DNA of 12,310 nt from a virus (IMGVR_UViG_2913192161_000002:1-12310); one strand, 5' to 3'. Numbered from the stretch's first letter, positions 655 through 9,944 are shown. Notes: generated by a model not told the origin, from the sequence alone. Numbers and translations are program-made.

Positions 655-1524
655 GTGACTAAAACAACTTCTTTTCAGATCTTCTACGATGCAGAGGATA
701 ACGAATTAGCACAGCATAAAATTGATGCCAAAACATTAAGCATCTCCATAGGTTCGATGGCAGATTTAATATCAGCAGCTGATAAAAGACTTAATGACGG
801 CCAACAAACCGTTAAGTTAATGGTTACTAATCCAGCAGAAGCGGGATCACTCGGCGTATCCTATACCATGATGGAGCTTGTTCCTCATGCCGTCGACGTC
901 GCAAAAGTGATTGGCCTAACAGGGATAGCCGGGGCTGCTATTGGAGCTCCAGCATTATCACTAATCCGCCAACTGGGCAGCAAGAAAGTAATTTCGGTAA
1001 CAAAACGGGCAGGAACAGAAGAATCTGTTCTTGAACTTGAAGGGGAAGAAATTGTTTGCCATGACTCAGTGGCTAAGTTAGTAACAGATCCTGAAGTCCG
1101 TGATGCCCTTGTGAATGTAGTTCGTGCACCATTAGACGGCAAACAAGGTGCAGTATTTAAGGTGCTAAATGATGAAGGCGAAGAAGTCGTTCGTCTTGAA
1201 GGAAGTGAAACCGAAGAGATCAAACCGCTGCCTAGAGGTACACTACTTGAAAAAGAAGAGTCTGTAGAAGAAGTCAATGTTAGATTCGTACAGATCAACT
1301 TCGAGGGTACAAAGGGTTGGAGAATCGATTATTTAGGCGAGGAGCATGCTGTTACCTTTGAAGATCAGTTGTTTATACACCAAGTTCAAAATGGAATCAT
1401 CAGTTTTACAAAAGAAGATTTGTTTGTTGTTGAGCTAAAAACTATAAAAACTTTCACTGCGCGAAATGCCACAACCAAGTATGCTATAACCAAAGTAAAA
1501 CGAAAACGCCCTGCTGAGGCTTGA
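655..1524 (+). CDS. Hypothetical protein, 289 aa, with one glycine-zipper-like hydrophobic segment; first gene of a three-gene accessory cassette
   Basis: Long ORF opposite to the flanking phage late genes and visibly more AT-rich. Internal hydrophobic Gly-rich segment VIGLTGIAGAAIGAPALSLI, an acidic middle region and a basic C-terminal tail KVKRKRPAEA. Start is uncertain: GTG at 655 sits directly against AAAGAG, and the next in-frame ATG is at 757. No family recognised. Confidence 0.65.
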   Translation: MTKTTSFQIFYDAEDNELAQHKIDAKTLSISIGSMADLISAADKRLNDGQQTVKLMVTNPAEAGSLGVSYTMMELVPHAVDVAKVIGLTGIAGAAIGAPALSLIRQLGSKKVISVTKRAGTEESVLELEGEEIVCHDSVAKLVTDPEVRDALVNVVRAPLDGKQGAVFKVLNDEGEEVVRLEGSETEEIKPLPRGTLLEKEESVEEVNVRFVQINFEGTKGWRIDYLGEEHAVTFEDQLFIHQVQNGIISFTKEDLFVVELKTIKTFTARNATTKYAITKVKRKRPAEA

Positions 1525-1790
1525 CAAAAGTGACACTGAACATGCAGATAGCACAACTGATCTTCTGGATAGGGGTGATAATGATCATCCCTGCCTTTAG
1601 TCGTTTTTGCTATTCAGCGTCAGCCTTGCTTTGGCGTCGACTATTCCCTACAAAAGTCTTCGAATTCCGATATCACGATGAAGAATCCGGAGTGACCAAG
1701 ACGCTAGTAATAAAAGTTCCAAGTAAAAAGGGAAAAATGCTAACAACCCTCATTGAAGAGGCAATTGCGGAGAATTCAAAACGAAAATGA
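1521..1790 (+). CDS. Small membrane protein, up to 89 aa, one N-terminal transmembrane helix and a charged C-terminal tail
   Basis: ORF overlaps the upstream stop (TTGA at 1521-1524); alternative starts are GTG at 1530 and ATG at 1542. Hydrophobic segment IAQLIFWIGVIMIIPAF followed by a Lys/Glu-rich tail. Its stop overlaps the next start (ATGA at 1787-1790). Confidence 0.55.
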   Translation: MTKVTLNMQIAQLIFWIGVIMIIPAFSRFCYSASALLWRRLFPTKVFEFRYHDEESGVTKTLVIKVPSKKGKMLTTLIEEAIAENSKRK

Positions 1791-2209
1791 ATTCTCAAAC
1801 TAAAGGTCTAAGCACAGGAAAAGCTACCCTTTCAACTGGTGGTTGGGGAGCAATTCTAAGTGTTCTTGTTAGCGCGATTTTAACCGACCCTAATAGCGTG
1901 TGGCGAACTGTAGCCTACGCATTAGTACCGGGTGTTGCGGCAACTTTAACTTACGTCATGAATTGGTTTATTTCGAGGCATGGTTTCGAATCTCCAGAAG
2001 ACGCAGCCAAAAGAGCAAAATGCAAGCGTGATTTGGCTGAGATTGAGAAGCAGTTACGATCTGACCACTTAAGTCCTGAAATAAAATCAACATTGATGCA
2101 GGCTAAAGCAAGAACAATCGAAATTTTGGTATCAATCGGAAGGGAATCTATACTCGAAACATCTGCGCGTAACATTACACCATCAGAAACTGCCGATCCG
2201 CAAAGCTGA
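1787..2209 (+). CDS. Membrane protein, 140 aa, two predicted transmembrane helices and a charged helical C-terminal domain (holin-like topology)
   Basis: ATG at 1787 overlaps the preceding stop. Two hydrophobic segments (GGWGAILSVLVSAIL and VAYALVPGVAATLTYVMNWFI) followed by a Lys/Arg/Glu-rich region. No family recognised. Confidence 0.6.
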   Translation: MNSQTKGLSTGKATLSTGGWGAILSVLVSAILTDPNSVWRTVAYALVPGVAATLTYVMNWFISRHGFESPEDAAKRAKCKRDLAEIEKQLRSDHLSPEIKSTLMQAKARTIEILVSIGRESILETSARNITPSETADPQS

Positions 2210-3366: not shown

Positions 3367-3529
3367 GACTCCTCCTTGCTGCCAGTCGCAACCATTTTTT
3401 ATCAACCAGGCTGGCGGTATACCCGAGCAGTGTTGGTATTTCGGATGGTTTCAGCTCAGGCTTACGCTTACGACGATTTGGTACTCTGTAGATGTGTCCG
3501 TTCATGACACGAATAAGCGGTGTAGCCAT
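3359..3529 (-). CDS. ninE: NinE
   Basis: Hand translation of the minus strand gives a 56 aa [59 protein letters not shown], which matches lambda/DLP12 NinE. Its ATG overlaps the ybcN stop (TAATG) and its 3' end overlaps the ybcO start. Missing from the ORF track because of length. Confidence 0.8.
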   Translation of the reverse strand: MATPLIRVMNGHIYRVPNRRKRKPELKPSEIPTLLGYTASLVDKKWLRLAARRSHG

Positions 3530-3984
3530 TACGCCTCCTGCTTGTCGCGCAGCAGCTGGAACTCGCAGCTCTGCGGAATAGTCAGGTGGCAGCCAATATT
3601 CATCGCCCAGGCTTCAACCTTACACAGGAAGACATACATCTCTCCGGTATCAAGATCGGAGGTATGGCGTAACGACTGGATCGTAGTGATTTCGCCGGTT
3701 ACGACATCAACCAGGTCCTTGGTTTCATAACCGAGGTATGTGTGTTTGAGAGCATCTTTTACCCATGCTGCGGTAGCGAACGATTTCCCCCTGCTGATGA
3801 GGTATTCACTGATTTCGCTGTACCACATGTGGCTGAGTGCATTCTGGGAAAGACTGCGTTTCTCACGCCACGGTTTAAGCACCATGCGAAAGCATTTTCC
3901 GTCCTCCAGATAAGGCTGGATCTGCTGACCGATAGCGGTGAAGTTGCCGCGATGTAATTTGATGCCGTCTTGTGGGAGGTTCAC
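3529..3984 (-). CDS. ybcN: NinB/Orf-family protein (YbcN-like DNA base-flipping protein)
   Basis: 151 aa product [48 protein letters not shown]... is near-identical to DLP12 YbcN from memory and shares the RSLxQN core with lambda NinB. GTG start with a GGAGGT ribosome-binding site. Confidence 0.9.
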
Positions 3985-4495
3985 GCTTCACCTCCGCAGA
4001 GGTCAAACGTTGGATGCAAAAAATCGCAGGTGCATTTCTGCAACTGTGAAGGGAGAAGAGAGTTTGGATTGTGTGTGCGCATAAACGTCCCCGTTTAGCG
4101 CAGAAGTCACCGGAGGTGTTCAGGCTCCGATGACATGATTATGGCGAGTTGATTATGGAAAATCAATTGAAGATGAAATTCAACAATGCCCCATGGTGCT
4201 ATGGCGCTCAATTAATTATATAACTTCAGAGAAAACTGATAACCCATTGATGATCACATTAGCTCAGACTAAGAAGACTGACAACGGGGACGAACATGAA
4301 CAGCAACGCCTGACATAGGTAAATCTCAAAAGCGAATCATATAATCCTTACCCCATCACTCAGAGACATCGCATAATAACATTCATACCACTATATAACC
4401 TCCAAATAACAACAACAATTCATTGGTTGCATTAATATCAGCGTGTTCCGTTGTTCAGGAATAAAACTTTTTATTTAACAAACAAAGAGAGTTCA

Positions 4496-5173
4496 ATGAT
4501 GAGCAAAATTACAGGCGTGTTAGTTGATAGCCATATCTATGATATTAAAAATGATATGGAGAGTGGTTACTGTTTCCCTAACAGTTTGTTCCCAGGAGCA
4601 ACCTTCAAGATGGTCATTGATAATGACCCTATTAATAATGACAAGGTAAAATGGACCTGTAGCACTAATGCAGACAATAATGTTCTGGCGGTTAGCCAGG
4701 ATGGCACAGTAACTTTTCCGGGCGTAGATGAAAAGTGCGTTGGGAAGATTTTTGTCATTTTCGCCACTGATAAATCAACAAACAAATCTGCCGGCATCTA
4801 TGTTTTTATTGTGAAGCGTTTTTTCAAATACAGCATTGAACTTTATAACTCAGTTAAAGATATTTTACCGTGGATTGAAAACATGAACGGGAATTTTCCT
4901 GAGGCACGTGACATCTATAGTTACGATTATGATAACTATAGTGGACCGCATATTATCAATCGAGAAGTTAACGCAGGGCTTTACCAGGAATGGGGCACGT
5001 TATCTAATAGTGGATGGGACGCAAGTTGTGAGCTTGAGGGTATTTGTAGCATTTACGCTTTTGATAAAGACAATAATACTTATTATTGCCTGCGTGATTA
5101 TGGAGAAATAGAGTGTATTGATCGTTTTTGCGTCGCTCAGGCAGTTGCATCCTACGGAGAATCCATCGACTGA
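4496..5173 (+). CDS. Hypothetical cysteine-rich protein, 226 aa from ATG 4496, possible Ig-like N-terminal region; lone accessory gene
   Basis: Strongly AT-rich ORF opposite to the phage operon, flanked by about 0.5 kb and 0.28 kb of AT-rich non-coding DNA. AAAGAGAG ribosome-binding site before the tandem ATGs at 4496/4499. Eight Cys, many Asn/Asp/Tyr. The segment VKWTCSTNADNNVLAVSQDGTVTFPG resembles bacterial Ig-like (Big_2-type) strands. No clear signal peptide. Confidence 0.55.
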   Translation: MMSKITGVLVDSHIYDIKNDMESGYCFPNSLFPGATFKMVIDNDPINNDKVKWTCSTNADNNVLAVSQDGTVTFPGVDEKCVGKIFVIFATDKSTNKSAGIYVFIVKRFFKYSIELYNSVKDILPWIENMNGNFPEARDIYSYDYDNYSGPHIINREVNAGLYQEWGTLSNSGWDASCELEGICSIYAFDKDNNTYYCLRDYGEIECIDRFCVAQAVASYGESID

Positions 5174-5251
5174 TTGTGTTTTTTTCAACTATCATTTGCA
5201 TTATTACAGCGTAAAGATTCACTGAAATTATAAAATTTAACTTGCGCAAAA

Positions 5252-5281
5252 CCACCCGTTCAGCGGGTGGTTCTCATTTTT
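5252..5281. terminator. Bidirectional rho-independent terminator between the convergent 240 aa gene and the Bro-N gene
   Basis: 7-bp stem CCACCCG(ttcag)CGGGTGG followed by TTCTCATTTTT on the plus strand and by TTTTGCGC on the minus strand. Confidence 0.55.
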
Positions 5282-5452
5282 ATCCACTATGTATATGAAG
5301 CTTAAAAAAATAAACGGACTTAAGCGATCCTTTTTATATTGCTACAAACAATTAATTCTCGACACCTAATAACTAAAGCCCCGCCCCCATATACCGCCAA
5401 TACCCGTTTCATAACAAAATGCTGGTGACATTTCTCACCGGAAACTTTATTG

Positions 5453-6058
5453 CTACTGCTCAGAACGCAAATGCGGCAATACTCGGCTCCACTTATCATC
5501 CTGCCACGGCTGGAATCTTACATGTGCCGTTTCTCTGGCAAGGATTTCGCGCGCCTTATGTAGTATCTGGGGATATTCTTGCTCAATAGAAGTAAAGCGA
5601 CCGGCTTCGCGATGCTCCGCAACCTGAAGAAGTGGAGTAATATTCTGGCAGGCGGTTAACATCACATCCCCTGCTCGCCATAACCAGGCGAGTGTGCAAA
5701 GTTCGTTATCAGTGAATTGTTTTGTGATTGGGGATTGTTGAACTTCTCGATCGAGAATATCCAGAACCCAGCGGCGGAATTCTTTGGCTACAGGAGTGCG
5801 GGCGAACATAGCGATCAAATGGGCACCACGGAGGGAGAAAATGCGTATTGTTTTCTGGTAGTTCCCTGAGACACTCAAATTGAGGGTCTCAGTCATATCT
5901 GCCCTAAATTCATCGGAATTTCGATCGTAGATCTGAGTTACGGCATCAGATTTTTTATATCCGAGAGCTTGAGCAATCTCAACGGCAGTAAGCCAGATAC
6001 TGTTGTTGTGTTTAACAGGATGGAATTTTGTTTGATGAAAGACTAGTTGTGTGCTCAT
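5453..6058 (-). CDS. Bro-N/AntA-like domain protein (putative antirepressor-type regulator)
   Basis: 201 aa. The N-terminus LVFHQTKFHPVKHNNSIWLTAVEIAQALGYKKSDAVTQIYDRNSDEF fits the Bro-N/AntA pattern (F..F..V....W..A.D/EIA..LGY) from memory. The C-terminal domain is not recognised. Confidence 0.5.
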   Translation of the reverse strand: MSTQLVFHQTKFHPVKHNNSIWLTAVEIAQALGYKKSDAVTQIYDRNSDEFRADMTETLNLSVSGNYQKTIRIFSLRGAHLIAMFARTPVAKEFRRWVLDILDREVQQSPITKQFTDNELCTLAWLWRAGDVMLTACQNITPLLQVAEHREAGRFTSIEQEYPQILHKAREILARETAHVRFQPWQDDKWSRVLPHLRSEQ

Positions 6059-6211
6059 GATGATTACCTATAAATCAAGTTAACCACCACCGCTGACGCC
6101 AATCAGTTTGGTGGTGAGACATGTAGGGTTGGCGTAACCGGGGTAATCAACCGGCCCGACCGAAGTCGGCCCTACACGCCCCACCATAATTCAGATGTGC
6201 GTATGCTTACG

Positions 6212-6238
6212 ACAATAAAAAACACGCTCGCGGCGTGT
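6212..6238 (-). terminator. Rho-independent terminator downstream of ren (tR2-like position)
   Basis: On the minus strand a 6-bp stem ACACGC(cgcga)GCGTGT is followed by TTTTTTATTG, about 100 nt after the ren stop. Confidence 0.6.
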
Positions 6239-6333
6239 AGTAGTCGCGATTACCTTATCCGGGACGCCAATCCCGTGTGCCGATTTTGCGGCAACGCACA
6301 GAATATAGCGCCAGATATTAGTTATCGTCAACC

Positions 6334-6633
6334 TCACTGATTTCCTCCCCCCGCCGCATAAACAAATAAAACCCGCTTCATCGCGGCACTCTGGCGACAC
6401 TCCTTGAAAATCAGATTCGTGCTCACCTTTCCTTCCCGTTCTTCCCTGGTAGCGAACCGGTAATACACCGTTCGCCAGACCTTACCATCAATGACTAAGA
6501 TTCCTGCCCGCGCCATTTTAGCCGCAGCCTGATTTATGCTGGTTACTGTTGCGCCTGTTACCTCAGCAACGTCCTGCGCACAGAAGCTCTTATGCGTCCC
6601 CAGGTAATGAATAATTGCTTCTTTTCCCGTCAT
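6334..6633 (-). CDS. ren: Ren protein
   Basis: Product MTGKEAIIHYLGTHKSFCAQDVAEVTGATVTSINQAAAKMARAGILVIDGKVWRTVYYRFATREEREGK... matches lambda Ren from memory. Its ATG overlaps the P stop (ATGA). Confidence 0.9.
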   Translation of the reverse strand: MTGKEAIIHYLGTHKSFCAQDVAEVTGATVTSINQAAAKMARAGILVIDGKVWRTVYYRFATREEREGKVSTNLIFKECRQSAAMKRVLFVYAAGGGNQ

Positions 6634-7331
6634 ACACTGGCTCCTTTCAGTCCGAACTTAGCTTTAATTTCTGCGATCTTCGCCAGAGCCTGTGCACGAT
6701 TTAGAGGTCTACCGCCCATGACAGGAAGTTGTTTTACTGGTTCAGGTATAGCCTCACCACGGTTAATTCGCGCGGTCATACAGGCCAGTTCATCGGCAGC
6801 CTTGCGCCGTAATTCCGCATCAGTAAGCGCATTGGCCCGCATGTTCTGGTACAGGTTGGTAACCAGCCAGTAGTGCGCGTTTGATTTCCACGGATAAGAC
6901 TCTGCATCTGGATACAGGCCACGCTTCCGGCAATACTCATAAACCATATCAACCAGCTCGCTGACGTTTGGCAGCCCGGCGTTAACGGATGCTTCTTCCC
7001 GGCACCAGGCGACAAACTGCCCGGGTGATGGCAGGAATGGTCGATTCTGCCGACGGGCTACGCGCATTCCAGCGTTAACCTGTTCCATCGTGGTGATCCC
7101 ATTTTCCCGGAAAGCCAGAACCCACTGGCGGCGGATTTCGTTCAGTTCGTTCTGGTCACGGTTAGCCAGGCTCGCCGGGAAAGTTGCCAGTAACTGGCTG
7201 AACACACCATTGATAATCTGCGCTACCTGCTGTACCTGCGGCTTTTCGTCGTACTGTTCCGGCATGTTATTGGCGATCCGGCGCATCTGCTCACGGTCAA
7301 AATTAACCATCTGTGCGGCGATGTTTTTCAT
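6630..7331 (-). CDS. P: Replication protein P (DnaB helicase loader)
   Basis: 233 aa product MKNIAAQMVNFDREQMRRIANNMPEQYDEKPQVQQVAQIINGVF... is essentially lambda P from memory. Confidence 0.95.
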   Translation of the reverse strand: MKNIAAQMVNFDREQMRRIANNMPEQYDEKPQVQQVAQIINGVFSQLLATFPASLANRDQNELNEIRRQWVLAFRENGITTMEQVNAGMRVARRQNRPFLPSPGQFVAWCREEASVNAGLPNVSELVDMVYEYCRKRGLYPDAESYPWKSNAHYWLVTNLYQNMRANALTDAELRRKAADELACMTARINRGEAIPEPVKQLPVMGGRPLNRAQALAKIAEIKAKFGLKGASV

Positions 7332-8257
7332 AGCTCCACCCCGTAAATCCAGTCAGTGTTCGTCAGGTCGAGTTTTGGTTTTCCGGCTGTCACGCCAGCC
7401 TGTTGCTTGTTACGGTTGATTTCGAGTTGGGTCCACTTGTCGCGGAGTTTGGCCGGACTTAGCACGTTACCGGACCAGAAGTTGTCCTGGCATGCCCAGC
7501 GGAACAGCACGCACATGTCGCGGTGGTTACGTCCGTCACGTTCACGCATCAGGCGGATATCGTTAGCCCACCCTGCAAAATTCGGTTTTCTGGCTGATGG
7601 CGCGATGGTCTTCACCATGTCAAACATCCACTCTGCGGCGGTCAGGTCTTCTGCTGTCCCCCACTTGCTGCCGCTCTGAATCGCAGCATCCGGTTTCACC
7701 ACAGGAAGGTCGTTTTCTGGCTGGTCAGAGGATTCGCCAGAATTCTCGGACGAATAAGGTTTTATATTGTCTTTTGTTAGTTTGTCTTTTGTGTTTACCT
7801 GATTCGGGTAAACGTCTTTACCTGATTTGGGTAAACTTTTTTTACCTGATTCAGGTAAATTTACCTCTTTCAGGTAAACTTTATTTTTCTTACCTGATTC
7901 GGGTAATGTTGACCATTCACTGACCACATTATTAATGCCGGTATTCCGCCCGCTCTGAATAAAAATCCCACGCTTTACCAGAACACTTTTTGCAGCAGAA
8001 CACTTGTGCGGCAATATCCCGGTTAACTCGGAAAGTTGCTCGTTGCTCACCCAATCCATTTTTTTATTAAAGCCATATGTTTTGCGCATGACAGCCAGGA
8101 AGACCAGAAGCTGGTGCTGTGTTAATCCAGCCAGCATCACAGCTTCCAGCAACTCATTTGCAATGCGCGTATAACCATCATCGAGATCTGCCACGCGCGG
8201 CTCCTTTTGTGCCGCATCCGGCACTGGAAAATTGAATATCTCAGCAGTGTTTGCCAT
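7328..8257 (-). CDS. O: Replication initiator O (origin-binding protein)
   Basis: From the internal ATG at 8257 (GGGAGGA ribosome-binding site) the product MANTAEIFNFPVPDAAQKEPRVADLDDGYTRIANELLEA... aligns with the lambda O N-terminus (MTNTAKILNF...VADLDDGY...). The coding region contains the iteron array. The ORF-track start at 8347 adds 30 residues with no lambda counterpart. Confidence 0.9.
   Translation of the reverse strand: MANTAEIFNFPVPDAAQKEPRVADLDDGYTRIANELLEAVMLAGLTQHQLLVFLAVMRKTYGFNKKMDWVSNEQLSELTGILPHKCSAAKSVLVKRGIFIQSGRNTGINNVVSEWSTLPESGKKNKVYLKEVNLPESGKKSLPKSGKDVYPNQVNTKDKLTKDNIKPYSSENSGESSDQPENDLPVVKPDAAIQSGSKWGTAEDLTAAEWMFDMVKTIAPSARKPNFAGWANDIRLMRERDGRNHRDMCVLFRWACQDNFWSGNVLSPAKLRDKWTQLEINRNKQQAGVTAGKPKLDLTNTDWIYGVEL
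7755..7906. repeat. Replication origin: five 17-bp iterons (TTACCTGATTCGGGTAA-like) plus an adjacent AT-rich region, embedded in O
   Basis: Iterons at 7795-7811, 7818-7834, 7842-7858, 7861-7877 and 7890-7906, each an internal inverted repeat TTACC...GGTAA. AT-rich tract at about 7755-7794 lies on the side downstream of O transcription, the same layout as lambda ori. Confidence 0.85.
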
Positions 8258-8343
8258 AATTCCTCCCGCAATGAGTGTGTTACGATTTGCACCTGAAAGT
8301 CGGTTCTGTTCCCGCAGACCGACTTTCGCCATTTTTGAACCTG

Positions 8344-8889
8344 TCATATTGCCCCCAGCATGGTGGTGACCATCGCCATCAATGGACCAGCCAGATCCGG
8401 GTCCACTCGAAACATCGACACAATGCCTTCACTCATCTCCTTCAGTTTCTGGTGGCGTGGTGCGTTGAGAATGACAGCCTGTTTTGCCTCACTGAGTTCC
8501 TTTTCCATTTCAGCCAACCTAGCCATAAAGCTATCCTGCTCAACCAGGTAACCGCGATATTCCAGCGGTAGTACCGCCAGAATTGCCGGGGTCAGTTCAC
8601 GCACGTTATTTCGGTATTTTTCAGAATCGAATTTGTTATCGAGGAAGCGGAACAGCTTCTGGCGTGCACGGCTGACATCATCAGGGAAATCGATGGTGCC
8701 GCCGCCCTGCTCCCGATACTCATTCACAATGAGTGCGGCAACAACATCCTGATTATCTGCAGCCGACCAGGCGCGGACGGCATCACGGATTTTTTCGTGG
8801 CCTGGAGCTTGTTTTGTTTGAGAACGATTTATCACCGCAGTCGGGCTAAATCCGCTAGTCTGTTGGTATGTAAGTGGTTGCATAGTCAT
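8344..8889 (-). CDS. CII-like regulatory protein (YdaT-like family)
   Basis: 181 aa ORF in the cII position between cro-like and O. Motifs EYREQGGG and LTPAILAVLP resemble what I recall of Rac YdaT-type CII-like proteins. AAGG ribosome-binding site before the ATG at 8889. Confidence 0.5.
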   Translation of the reverse strand: MTMQPLTYQQTSGFSPTAVINRSQTKQAPGHEKIRDAVRAWSAADNQDVVAALIVNEYREQGGGTIDFPDDVSRARQKLFRFLDNKFDSEKYRNNVRELTPAILAVLPLEYRGYLVEQDSFMARLAEMEKELSEAKQAVILNAPRHQKLKEMSEGIVSMFRVDPDLAGPLMAMVTTMLGAI

Positions 8890-8913: not shown

Positions 8914-9141
8914 TTAGGCGGCAGAATTACTCGCGTTAAACAATGGTGCGAGGTCGGGACGAATATCTGCTGGTTTAATCTTTCCACCAGTGGCTGAGAC
9001 AATTTTCATTACATAGCGGGCATCAATTCCGCCACCGTGTAGCCAACGCCAAACAGTGGGTTGGGCTACACCGCATAGATCTGCCAGTCGTTTTTGACTA
9101 CCTGTAATACTGATTGCGAGTTGAATGGTTTGATTTGTCAT
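8914..9141 (-). CDS. cro: Cro-like HTH repressor (YdaS-like family)
   Basis: 75 aa from ATG 9141 (AGGA ribosome-binding site). HTH segment LADLCGVAQPTVWRWLHGG. First gene transcribed divergently from cI, downstream of the predicted PR. Confidence 0.7.
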   Translation of the reverse strand: MTNQTIQLAISITGSQKRLADLCGVAQPTVWRWLHGGGIDARYVMKIVSATGGKIKPADIRPDLAPLFNASNSAA

Positions 9142-9172
9142 TATCAATTCCTATTGGTATTGCAATGAATAA

Positions 9173-9242
9173 ATAATAGCAATGCGTATTAATCATAACA
9201 ATAGCAAAACGTGTTTTGACCATCAATACGCAAGCGTATAAA
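9173..9242. promoter_or_regulatory. OR region: three 16-bp operators (6-4-6 inverted repeats, arms AATAGC/AATACG) overlapping divergent PR and PRM candidates
   Basis: Operators read directly: 9175-9190 AATAGC-AATG-CGTATT, 9200-9215 AATAGC-AAAA-CGTGTT, 9225-9240 AATACG-CAAG-CGTATA, centres 25 bp apart. PR on the minus strand: -35 TTGTTA (9196-9201), 17-bp spacer, -10 TATTAT (9173-9178). PRM candidate on the plus strand: -35 TTGACC (9216-9221), -10 TATAAA (9237-9242), implying a near-leaderless cI mRNA. Confidence 0.6.
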
Positions 9243-9251
9243 TTAAAACTT

Positions 9252-9944
9252 ATGAAAAAAGAAACTCTTGCTGATCGCTTAAACCTAGCGATGGAACAAT
9301 CTGGAATGTCTCAAGGCGCTCTTGCAAAGGCGTCTGGCGTAGCTCAACCCACAATCTGGAGACTGACAAGCGGCAACGCGCGCGGCTCAACAAAAATTGT
9401 TGAAATAGCTAATGCATTGGGTGTTCGAACAGAGTGGCTCTCATCAGGCATAGGCCCGATGAGAAATGACGGTCAACAATTAGGGAAGCCTACTGCCAAC
9501 CATCCCAAATACTTCAAGATTGACGTTCTTGATATAGAAGTGAGTGCCGGGCCGGGAGTCATCAACCGTGAGTTTGTAGAAGTTCTACGCTCGGTTGAGT
9601 ACTCGTTTGACGATGCTCGTCACATGTTCGATGGCAGGAAGGCAGAAAATATCCGCATCATTAACGTACGCGGTGACAGCATGTCAGGAACGATCGAACC
9701 AGGTGATCTTCTGTTCGTTGATATCACTGTTAAATCTTTCGACGGTGATGGTATCTATGCGTTTCTGTATGACGACACCGCCCATGTAAAGCGCCTGCAA
9801 ATGATGAAGGATAAGCTGCTGGTTATCTCTGATAACAAGAGCTACTCACCGTGGGACCCGATCGAGAAAGACGAGATGAACCGCGTGTTCATCTTCGGGA
9901 AAGTCATCGGGAGCATGCCGCAGACATATAGAAAGCATGGGTAG
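9252..9944 (+). CDS. cI: CI-like prophage repressor (N-terminal HTH, C-terminal LexA-like S24 autopeptidase domain)
   Basis: From ATG 9252: HTH segment LAKASGVAQPTIWRLTSGN, an Ala-Gly cleavage-site candidate (SAGPG), and a C-terminal GDSM serine motif with VKRL lysine, as in LexA and lambda cI. The ORF-track TTG start at 9216 is rejected because it lies inside the operators. Confidence 0.9.
   Translation: MKKETLADRLNLAMEQSGMSQGALAKASGVAQPTIWRLTSGNARGSTKIVEIANALGVRTEWLSSGIGPMRNDGQQLGKPTANHPKYFKIDVLDIEVSAGPGVINREFVEVLRSVEYSFDDARHMFDGRKAENIRIINVRGDSMSGTIEPGDLLFVDITVKSFDGDGIYAFLYDDTAHVKRLQMMKDKLLVISDNKSYSPWDPIEKDEMNRVFIFGKVIGSMPQTYRKHG

Follow-up and report, generated by a model that had tools for sequence, protein, structure and literature searches.

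The window, a stretch of 12,310 nucleotides of viral DNA, covers immunity, replication and nin genes of a lambdoid prophage that is read on the minus strand, and the host of the prophage is probably a non-coli Escherichia. The gene under study (hereafter the effector gene) lies in the interval between ren and ninB (Table 1). It has the same orientation as the cro-O-P-ren and nin genes, and the 275 bases that separate it from ren are filled by a leader that consists of IsrK and C4 RNA elements. In relatives this ren-nin stretch forms a hotspot of accessory or defence genes (PD-lambda-1, HEPN pair). Neither an Arc/Mnt open reading frame (ORF) nor a sar RNA was found in the window by ORF calling and Rfam searches, and Rfam gave no match to isrJ in the window. 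A match to STnc490 at 5174-5272 (Rfam, E = 0.41) was rejected as merely a terminator hairpin.

Table 1. Features of the window, listed by descending coordinate
Feature	Coordinates	Strand	Details
S24/LexA-like CI repressor	9216-9944	+	prophage's own repressor
YdaS-type Cro	8914-9147
YdaT-type protein	8344-8889		in cII position
O	7328-8347
P	6630-7331
Ren-like protein	6334-6633	-	stop codon 6336-6334
Sigma-70 promoter, predicted	6302..6331	-	-35 TTGACG 6331-6326, spacer 18, -10 TATATT 6307-6302
IsrK RNA (= P1 a1b1 leader element)	6217..6295	-	Rfam RF01394 match at 6293..6217, 61.2 bits vs gathering score 50
a1 box	6270-6264	-	TTGGCGT; inside IsrK; exact complement of unpaired C4 segment
b1 box	6254-6248	-	GGTAATC; inside IsrK; exact complement of unpaired C4 segment
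C4 antisense RNA (= STnc1160 of Gifsy-1)	6107..6191	-	Rfam RF01695, 74.2 bits vs gathering score 45, full length
Leader ORF	6080..6187	-	35 codons; AUG at C4 nt 5; stops 21 nt before effector ATG
a2 box	6096..6102	-	TTGGCGT; complement of C4 nt 57-63, unpaired, 3′ of hairpin 2
b2 box	6061..6068	-	GGTAATCA; complement of hairpin-2 loop, C4 nt 43-50 (b′, 6149-6142)
Effector gene, predicted antirepressor	5453..6058	-	201 aa; Bro-N aa 15-101, P22_AR_C aa 111-180
Weak terminator-like hairpin, possible 3′ end of cassette	5424..5439	-	5 pairs, consensus match only; just 3′ of effector stop
AT-rich ORF	4451-5173	+	next after effector, before NinB/YbcN
NinB/YbcN	3529-3984		followed by NinE, YbcO, RusA
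Q	2233-2613

The effector gene is an intact ORF on the minus strand that coincides exactly with the positions originally given, 5453-6058. Membership in a Pfam family was accepted where the score exceeded the curated gathering score, and this holds for two domains of the protein. The N-terminal domain is Bro-N (PF02498; E = 2e-13, 51.2 bits against a cut-off of 25.6, profile positions 5-93 of 96), which is one of the two families that had been proposed for it; the other, AntA (PF08346), had no Pfam match in the effector at E ≤ 0.01. The C-terminal part, which had been regarded as an unrecognised domain, is P22_AR_C (PF10548; E = 1.2e-15, 57.8 bits against a cut-off of 22.4, profile positions 3-72 of 73). 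Pfam detected in the effector neither P22_AR_N, the place of which is taken by Bro-N, nor the ANT domain of the P1 Ant type (PF03374), nor a helix-turn-helix or other classical DNA-binding domain. PHROG families annotated as 'anti-repressor Ant' match the effector, the best value quoted being that for phrog_245 (E = 2.9e-52). Searches of the effector against NCBIfam and against the defence models of PADLOC-DB 2.0 matched zero families each, and no published experiment on a protein with Bro-N and P22_AR_C was found in the literature.

A sequence search of the PDB returned no solved relative of the effector, with best E-values of 0.89 for the protein and 0.98 for a 26-sequence profile. In an AlphaFold2 (AF2) model built from a shallow alignment of sequences that are 61-92% identical, the overall pLDDT is 69.7. 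Bro-N is modelled confidently, with a mean pLDDT per 10-residue block that is mostly 81-92 and weaker blocks (69-74) at residues 1-10 and 61-70, and the C-terminal part is helical and of low confidence (pLDDT 52-62). Comparison of the model with the PDB by Foldseek gave nothing at E < 0.03. Matches to PadR and to a topoisomerase were dismissed as meaningless on account of an rmsd above 18 Å, and a weak local likeness of the Bro-N model to a Ski-like fragment of winged-helix type (E = 0.33) is not significant; the fold search was not used for any functional inference.

The leader begins with a promoter-like site, TTGACG-18-TATATT, in which 10 of 12 consensus positions are matched (consensus scan) and the -35 hexamer begins 3 nt past the ren stop codon; a transcription start at about 6295 is predicted from it. 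The site aligns with its counterparts upstream of isrK in Gifsy-1 and in VT2-Sakai, ETEC1720, IdasGreatGrand, Stx2a_F723, VT2phi_272 and APSE-2, and the Gifsy-1 promoter, PisrK, has been tested experimentally and drives transcription of anrP (PMC4825925). The promoter is followed by IsrK, which is also overlapped by the RF03163 (c4-a1b1) model at 41.9 bits, below the gathering score of 46.7. IsrK ends in a Rho-independent terminator with its stem at 6238-6222 and a U run, and a terminator scan found this to be the only intrinsic-terminator-like site on the minus strand between ren and the effector gene. In the minimum free energy fold of C4, the next element, nt 42-50 (the loop of hairpin 2) and nt 56-63 are unpaired. 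The leader ORF that opens within C4 corresponds in position to orf45 of Gifsy-1 and to icd of P1; its product has no family match, and its likeness to orf45 is restricted to the conserved RNA stems.

According to the original prediction, the effector gene was inserted between a tR2-like terminator and the nin genes, within the delayed-early operon. The gene does lie between the Ren-like/P genes and the nin-type genes, but since the region upstream of it is made up of full-length IsrK and C4, a dedicated regulatory leader, its hairpins are not those of lambda tR2. Identity with a lambda tR2-type terminator was therefore rejected, the terminator present being that of IsrK, with C4 behind it. As to the operon, the shared orientation agrees with the earlier view, and the gene's own conserved promoter and its antisense control do not.

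Pairing of the whole C4 with its flanks by RNAduplex was discarded, as it produced implausibly long duplexes that unfold C4, and recognition boxes were instead called as exact complements to the unpaired C4 segments. Box b2 spans 4-11 nt before the effector ATG and thus overlaps the Shine-Dalgarno region. The shuffle P for an 8-nt complement of the loop in the translation-initiation region is 0.0037, and the motif GGTAATC has no other occurrence on the same strand of the 12-kb window.

Co-variation of the boxes was followed in 12 cassettes that have an identifiable first downstream gene: those of this window, E. coli ETEC1720, Aaphi23, APSE-2, a Vibrio phage, O157 typing phage 10, VT2-Sakai, Stx2a_F723, VT2phi_272, Gifsy-1, the P2-like phage P88 and P1. 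Among them are 11 distinct hairpin-2 (b′) loops and 5 distinct a′ segments. In 11 of these 12, an exact complement of the loop (b2, 6-11 nt, the minimum called for being 6) is present around the beginning of the first downstream gene, at positions between 23 nt ahead of its start codon and 10 nt inside the coding sequence; the sole exception is Aaphi23, which has no exact b2. A second complement of the loop is found upstream, in IsrK, in 10/12. When each translation-initiation region was shuffled separately (mononucleotide shuffles), P was 0.0001-0.006 in five of eight loci tested, 0.04 in Gifsy-1, 0.12 in Sakai and 0.51 in Aaphi23. The closest E. coli relatives (~84% DNA identity) have another b specificity, CTACTCAA, which is located within the first codons of the gene. 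That b′ and b2 co-vary from locus to locus is good evidence for an action of C4 on the site where translation of the effector begins.

All isrK/C4 cassettes examined have a gene of the antirepressor class downstream, except that the cassette of ST64B lies inside such a gene. The domain composition of this cargo is variable. Bro-N with P22_AR_C is found in this window, in two E. coli-type phages and in Aaphi23, and Bro-N with other C-termini is found in APSE-2 (P43), the Vibrio phage and typing phage 10. ORF6N is combined with P22_AR_C in the Stx phages and with pRha in a Yersinia phage, and is the domain of Gifsy-1 AnrP and of the VT2phi_272 protein. The remaining types are ASH with pRha in ST64B (sb41, with the RNA inside the gene), ANT/KilAC in P1 Ant, and a Derepression-family protein in P88. 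The cassette also occupies other genomic positions, being found after Q in Gifsy-1 and in P1, the P2-like P88 and APSE.

The immI region of P1 and P7 is ordered as P51 promoters, a1 b1, c4 RNA, a2 b2, icd and ant1/ant2. The window shares with P1 the promoter, the a1/b1 boxes, C4, the a2/b2 boxes with b2 at a ribosome-binding site, and the antirepressor-class gene that follows, and the two also have in common the C4 fold and both unpaired recognition segments. In the P1 record, the partner of a is the unpaired C4 segment on the 3′ side, the partner of b is the hairpin-2 loop, and the annotated b2 begins 19 nt before the icd ATG, a placement that is the counterpart of b2 in the window. Box order and spacing are those of the annotated P1 record, whereas the box sequences differ from those of P1. 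A difference in box sequence is the basis of the immunity difference between P1 and P7; in these phages heteroimmunity is defined by C4, which blocks the region of ribosome binding that precedes ant. The two systems differ in several other respects. In P1, b2 lies on the ribosome-binding site of icd, which encodes a cell-division inhibitor of 73 aa and stands between C4 and ant; in the window, b2 lies directly on the ribosome-binding site of the effector gene, and the only leader ORF (35 aa) overlaps C4. P1 Ant has 347 aa and ANT/KilAC domains (Ant1 = PF03374) in place of Bro-N and P22_AR_C, and P1 is a plasmid prophage, in contrast to the lambdoid prophage of the window. The promoter of P1 is overlapped by a C1 operator.

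The second system of this type is the isrK - orf45 (STnc1160) - anrP - isrJ locus of Gifsy-1 (Hershko-Shalev et al. 2016, PMC4825925). In both loci, IsrK and the C4-like RNA score above the Rfam gathering scores, the promoter is the same, a1 is at nt 26-32, the leader ORF opens at the same AUG in the 5′ stem of C4, and b2 lies shortly before the ATG of the effector gene. In the numbering of that paper, the AUG at C4 nt 5 is A107, the first in orf45. Short IsrK switches on translation of orf45 and anrP in trans, translation of orf45 is required for that of anrP, and AnrP causes transcripts of the antQ operon to rise and the Gifsy-1 prophage to be induced (PMC4825925). Of the compensatory mutant pairs described there (isrK G28A/orf45 C162U and G31A/C159U; PMC4825925), the isrK changes map to a1 and the compensating orf45 changes to a′. 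Transcription of IsrK and STnc1160 is high in lysogens of Gifsy-1 in which none was seen for lytic genes (PMC7067206). The P1 and Gifsy-1 descriptions fit one scheme, in which C4 (a′b′) silences a2b2 and the IsrK decoy (a1b1) relieves the silencing. The window differs from Gifsy-1 in the sequence of the b′ loop, in its position between ren and ninB rather than downstream of antQ, and in having no isrJ, which lies downstream in Gifsy-1. Gifsy-1 orf45 overlaps the start of anrP, whereas the leader ORF of the window ends 21 nt short of the effector ATG, and translational coupling is therefore less certain here. AnrP belongs to the ORF6N type, and its comparison with the effector detected no similarity; direct homology between the two was accordingly rejected, and the link is through the RNA leader only.

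The antirepressor of P22 provides the comparison for the protein. P22 Ant (300 aa), which has been defined biochemically and binds its C2/CI repressor non-covalently, consists of P22_AR_N (E = 4.6e-44) and P22_AR_C, and in pairwise alignment with the effector only the C-terminal domain is shared (23% identity, E = 3e-5). P22 Ant inactivates repressors of the S24 LexA-like CI class (PMC3064807). Control of the P22 immI region is by Mnt, Arc and sar, in contrast to the C4/IsrK RNA control of the window, yet full-length homologues of the effector fill the ant slot of P22-type immI regions in SPN3UB, PhiR5_1, KP12 and ST512-KPC3phi13.1. The homologue in the Salmonella phage SPN3UB is 44% identical over its full length and lies in the P22 layout mnt-arc-sar-ant, with a divergent Mnt-like gene, a small Arc-like gene and, antisense to the beginning of the homologue's gene, an Rfam sar RNA. 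The homologue in the E. coli phage PhiR5_1 is 70% identical and occupies the same slot between ren and ninB, behind Mnt- and Arc-like genes. The Arc-like calls in these two phages are supported by Pfam Arc matches, and a similar Mnt/Arc layout is seen from the gene order in KP12 and ST512-KPC3phi13.1, in the latter also from the annotation. One effector family thus stands under two unrelated, dedicated silencing devices, each of them known from antirepressor operons, which speaks for a product that the lysogen has to keep silent. A need for silencing in the lysogen is a hallmark of antirepressors, and as judged from these gene arrangements it argues for such a role here.

The effector family is common. 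At E ≤ 1e-5 there are 4952 database relatives, and both domains are present in all 120 of 120 homologues among the matches listed. The effector is 99-100% identical to proteins already annotated in Escherichia sp. E4694 and E1V33, the usual annotations being "P22AR C-terminal domain-containing protein" and "BRO family protein". Of 5426 complete E. coli genomes, 1295 have a match to some part of the 1.2-kb region. A contig search with the single effector protein gave just two loci, and the diversity was therefore sampled from phage records.

Two further groups of elements carry related combinations. The Ant proteins of Stx phages (VT2-Sakai/Sp5 and Stx2a_F723; Phi24B) resemble the effector in being encoded in the nin region of lambdoid phages with an isrK-C4 leader directly upstream, and in having P22_AR_C, to which the pairwise similarity is confined. 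Their N-terminus is ORF6N and not Bro-N, the gene is positioned after ninE and is followed by roi, and the b′ specificity is unlike that of the window. In a Phi24B ant knockout, a pR′ reporter still reached 27-56% of wild type, a modest effect, and superinfection was unaffected (PMC3064807), data that fit a helper role in derepression after SOS. In satellite P4, the CI RNA, seqA and seqC lie within eta, and regulation acts through transcription termination; the P4 RNA is inside a Bro-network gene, whereas the RNA of the window precedes the gene and b2 is on its ribosome-binding site. ST64B sb41 has an embedded RNA arrangement like that of P4. The C4 and isrK Rfam models pick up relatives of the P4 CI and seqA RNAs, and the immunity RNAs of PICI and P4 elements are associated with domain-swapping proteins of a 'Bro network' that includes Bro-N and P22_AR_C (PMC10111431).

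We consider it rather probable that the gene encodes the effector of a self-contained secondary-immunity cassette of the P1 immI (c4-icd-ant) or Gifsy-1 isrK-orf45-anrP type, a protein that would act by inactivating CI-type repressors. The antirepressor-like character given to the gene in the original prediction is upheld by the P22_AR_C domain common to P22 Ant, by the P1-type C4/IsrK leader and by the homologues under Mnt/Arc/sar control. As the N-terminus is unlike those of P22 Ant (P22_AR_N), P1 Ant (ANT/KilAC) and AnrP (ORF6N), transfer of function rests on the C-terminal domain and the context. Other points that weigh against this reading are the DNA binding generally predicted for Bro-N, the modest effect of the Phi24B ant knockout, the gap between the leader ORF and the effector ATG, the c4-a1b1 match below its gathering score, and the low confidence of the C-terminal AF2 model together with the empty fold search.

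The mechanism that we propose joins the domain and RNA-family matches, the complementarity and co-variation of the boxes and the conservation of the promoter obtained here to what the P1 and Gifsy-1 literature holds for the RNAs, namely that C4 represses and that IsrK activates through a1:a′ pairing. Transcription would start at about 6295 from the conserved sigma-70 promoter, and most transcripts would stop at the IsrK terminator to yield an IsrK of ~77 nt with a1 and b1. Transcripts that read through would carry C4, the 35-codon leader ORF, a2/b2 and the Bro-N/P22_AR_C gene. C4, either in cis or after processing, could then pair through both unpaired segments with a2 and b2, and because b2 covers the Shine-Dalgarno region the effector would remain untranslated in the lysogen. 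A superinfecting phage with the same boxes might likewise be silenced by C4. IsrK would serve as a decoy copy of the boxes, so that rising IsrK titrates C4 and the leader ORF and the effector are consequently translated; processing of the RNA and Rho polarity are steps that we infer. The protein may finally bind and inactivate a CI-type repressor, leading to derepression that would be independent of RecA. By analogy, the target of the Bro-N/P22_AR_C protein is probably of the CI type, and the candidates are the prophage's own S24/LexA-like repressor and that of another prophage resident in the same cell. Related systems offer documented cases of cross-induction by antirepressors (PMC7380047; PMC3064807).

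An alternative view of the protein is that it binds DNA in a sequence-specific manner through Bro-N and acts as a transcription factor, be it an activator or a repressor, and not by contact with a phage repressor, with C4/IsrK control unchanged. Bro-N and related domains are described as DNA-interactive, and CapR of PLE, a member of the same 'Bro network', is a DNA-binding repressor of a promoter (PMC10111431); the usual view of Bro-N together with the CapR example makes a transcription-factor role a serious rival. Bro-N is moreover the sole confidently structured part of the AF2 model, and the non-significant resemblance to the Ski-like fragment would point the same way. Against these stand the P22_AR_C domain common to P22 Ant, which works by binding of a repressor, the homologues in the exact ant position of P22-type immI operons, and the Pfam search that detected no helix-turn-helix or classical DNA-binding domain, and we regard this explanation as unlikely, though one to be kept in mind. 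A broader version, in which the protein is not a CI-binding antirepressor and is instead a DNA-binding switch or a trigger acting on satellites or heterologous prophages, is in our judgement also unlikely. In that version the interchangeable C4/IsrK boxes, whose sequences differ even between relatives that are 84% identical, would provide lambdoid phages with a second immunity specificity, encoded in RNA and independent of cI. PICI and P4 satellites are rich in Bro-network genes (PMC10111431), and a satellite-triggering, toxic (kil-like) or abortive-infection effector silenced by RNA, in the manner of type I/III toxin-antitoxin systems or P4 Eta/Kil, would have a precedent in P1 icd/kilA and P4 eta/kil, which are in equivalent RNA-controlled positions, as well as in the accessory and defence genes that the ren-nin interval hosts in relatives. 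The main role of such an effector would be host killing, phage exclusion or satellite cross-talk and not control of the phage's own repressor. Overexpression of Phi11 Gp07, a Bro-like protein with a KilA C-terminal domain, reportedly inhibits growth, and the toxicity maps to the KilA C-terminal domain (PMC5944126), a domain that is absent from the effector. With toxicity in Gifsy-1 traced to AntQ, downstream of AnrP, and not to the antirepressor, and with no PADLOC defence family for the effector, this proposal appears improbable.

A further account of the locus would dispense with a cassette altogether, making the effector a plain delayed-early gene of the pR operon that is expressed with N-antiterminated pR transcription, and the hairpins a tR2-like terminator. 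The orientation shared with cro-O-P-ren and the nin genes is as this account expects, and read-through from pR would boost effector transcription after induction, as proposed for Phi24B ant. The supposed terminator, however, is a full-length IsrK and C4, both above their Rfam gathering scores; the cassette has its own conserved promoter; over the 12 loci compared, the boxes change in step with the translation start that follows them; and the same cassette recurs at the other genomic positions listed above for Gifsy-1, P1, P88 and APSE. We therefore hold this account to be very improbable and retain the RNA-controlled antirepressor cassette as the preferred reading.

The effector and its cassette are an ordinary, recognisable representative of a known type of system, and conceptually nothing about them is new, as the modules, the domains and their association have all been described. 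What changes relative to the first reading of the locus is the identity of the C-terminal domain, the presence of an IsrK/C4 leader with its own promoter, and the placement of b2 on the ribosome-binding site. For annotation, the ren-nin interval would be entered as a complete, autonomous, RNA-controlled antirepressor cassette and not as a terminator with an odd gene behind it. Such a cassette predicts a RecA-independent route of induction and a second immunity determinant. More tentatively, C4/STnc1160 may block the effector ribosome-binding site through b2 in loci of the Gifsy-1 type too, in which case the 'repressor RNA' model of P1 and the 'activator RNA' model of Gifsy-1 would be unified as a decoy-titration switch. 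The homologues further indicate that one effector family can be plugged behind either P1-type (C4/IsrK) or P22-type (Mnt/Arc/sar) modules in the same genomic slot. Co-variation of loop and target offers a simple means of predicting, for the prophages of a polylysogen, between which of them antirepressors can be silenced or cross-activated.

Cassettes that pair the small RNA IsrK with a C4 antisense RNA recur in other loci. In Gifsy-1 (L004, 34076-34214), a b2 box, ATCACCG, lies 14-20 nt upstream of the ATG of the effector gene anrP and complements the hairpin-2 loop of the C4 element, STnc1160. Because of this complementarity, the sequence suggests that STnc1160 may directly repress anrP by antisense pairing; the role discussed for STnc1160 by Hershko-Shalev et al. 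(2016; PMC4825925) is termination control only. Phage Aaphi23 (L012, 1759-1944) has an AaHKsRNA82 RNA (Rfam, 99.2 bits) in the IsrK slot upstream of C4, and this RNA contains the a1/b1 boxes; inspection of the Aaphi23 ant start revealed no exact b2 box. In a Burkholderiaceae metagenome-assembled genome (L006), the isrK-C4 pair and the neighbouring Bro-N gene are on opposite strands (413-610 versus 701-1024), with the pair directed away from the gene, and it must therefore control something other than the adjacent Bro-N gene.

An unannotated 36-codon stretch in NC_049946.1 (41457-41564) has 66.7% identity to residues 99-134 of the predicted antirepressor, and such a stretch is present in the lambda-like phages Escherichia phage 4A7, Lambda_4C10, 3W and Perceval; it is possibly the leftover of a lost nin-region antirepressor gene. 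The homologues of this protein that follow Arc-like genes (loci L008-L011: PhiR5_1, KP12, ST512-KPC3phi13.1 and SPN3UB) are annotated with N-termini 27-48 codons longer, from starts that overlap the 3′ end of the arc-like ORF. Databases give many homologues a length of 234 aa, not 207 aa, and start codons look to have been assigned inconsistently across the family.

The ORF that separates the antirepressor cassette from ninB resembles a moron that occupies a variable site (coordinates of this and the other features are tabulated below). Its GC content is about 0.36-0.40, versus about 0.51 in the flanks; its product had no match in PHROG, PADLOC or NCBIfam, and its sole Pfam match, to Invasin_D4, was sub-threshold. 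Nearby genes in relatives include PD-lambda-1, or a HEPN-domain gene and an adjoining hypothetical gene.

Possible accessory genes and immunity-region features of the window
Feature	Position	Strand	Remarks
289-aa protein gene	655-1524	+	Q-holin interval; PADLOC candidate defence family PDC-S42
Small ORF	1521-1790		Follows 289-aa gene; overlaps next ORF
Small ORF	1787-2209		Overlaps preceding ORF
240-aa ORF	4451-5173	+	AT-rich; between antirepressor cassette (opposite strand) and ninB
Terminator hairpin	5250-5272		Strong; 240-aa ORF's own
YdaT-type protein	8344-8889	-	cII position
YdaS-type protein	8914-9147	-	Cro position
Peptidase_M78 (ImmA/IrrE-like) protein, 379 aa	10074-11213	+	HEVAH motif
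DUF4411 protein, 170 aa	11210-11722	+	Overlaps Peptidase_M78 gene

Between Q and the holin gene, the 289-aa product matches PDC-S42 with an E-value of 8.8e-33, and the products of the two small ORFs are without any family match; together the three genes form a possible accessory or defence module, at the position occupied in Stx phages by the stx genes. In the immunity region, the YdaS- and YdaT-type proteins, which are Rac-prophage-like, stand in place of the Cro and CII of lambda. The Peptidase_M78/DUF4411 pair directly adjoins cI, in the slot that holds rexAB in lambda, and gave weak PADLOC matches to capP and RmrA.
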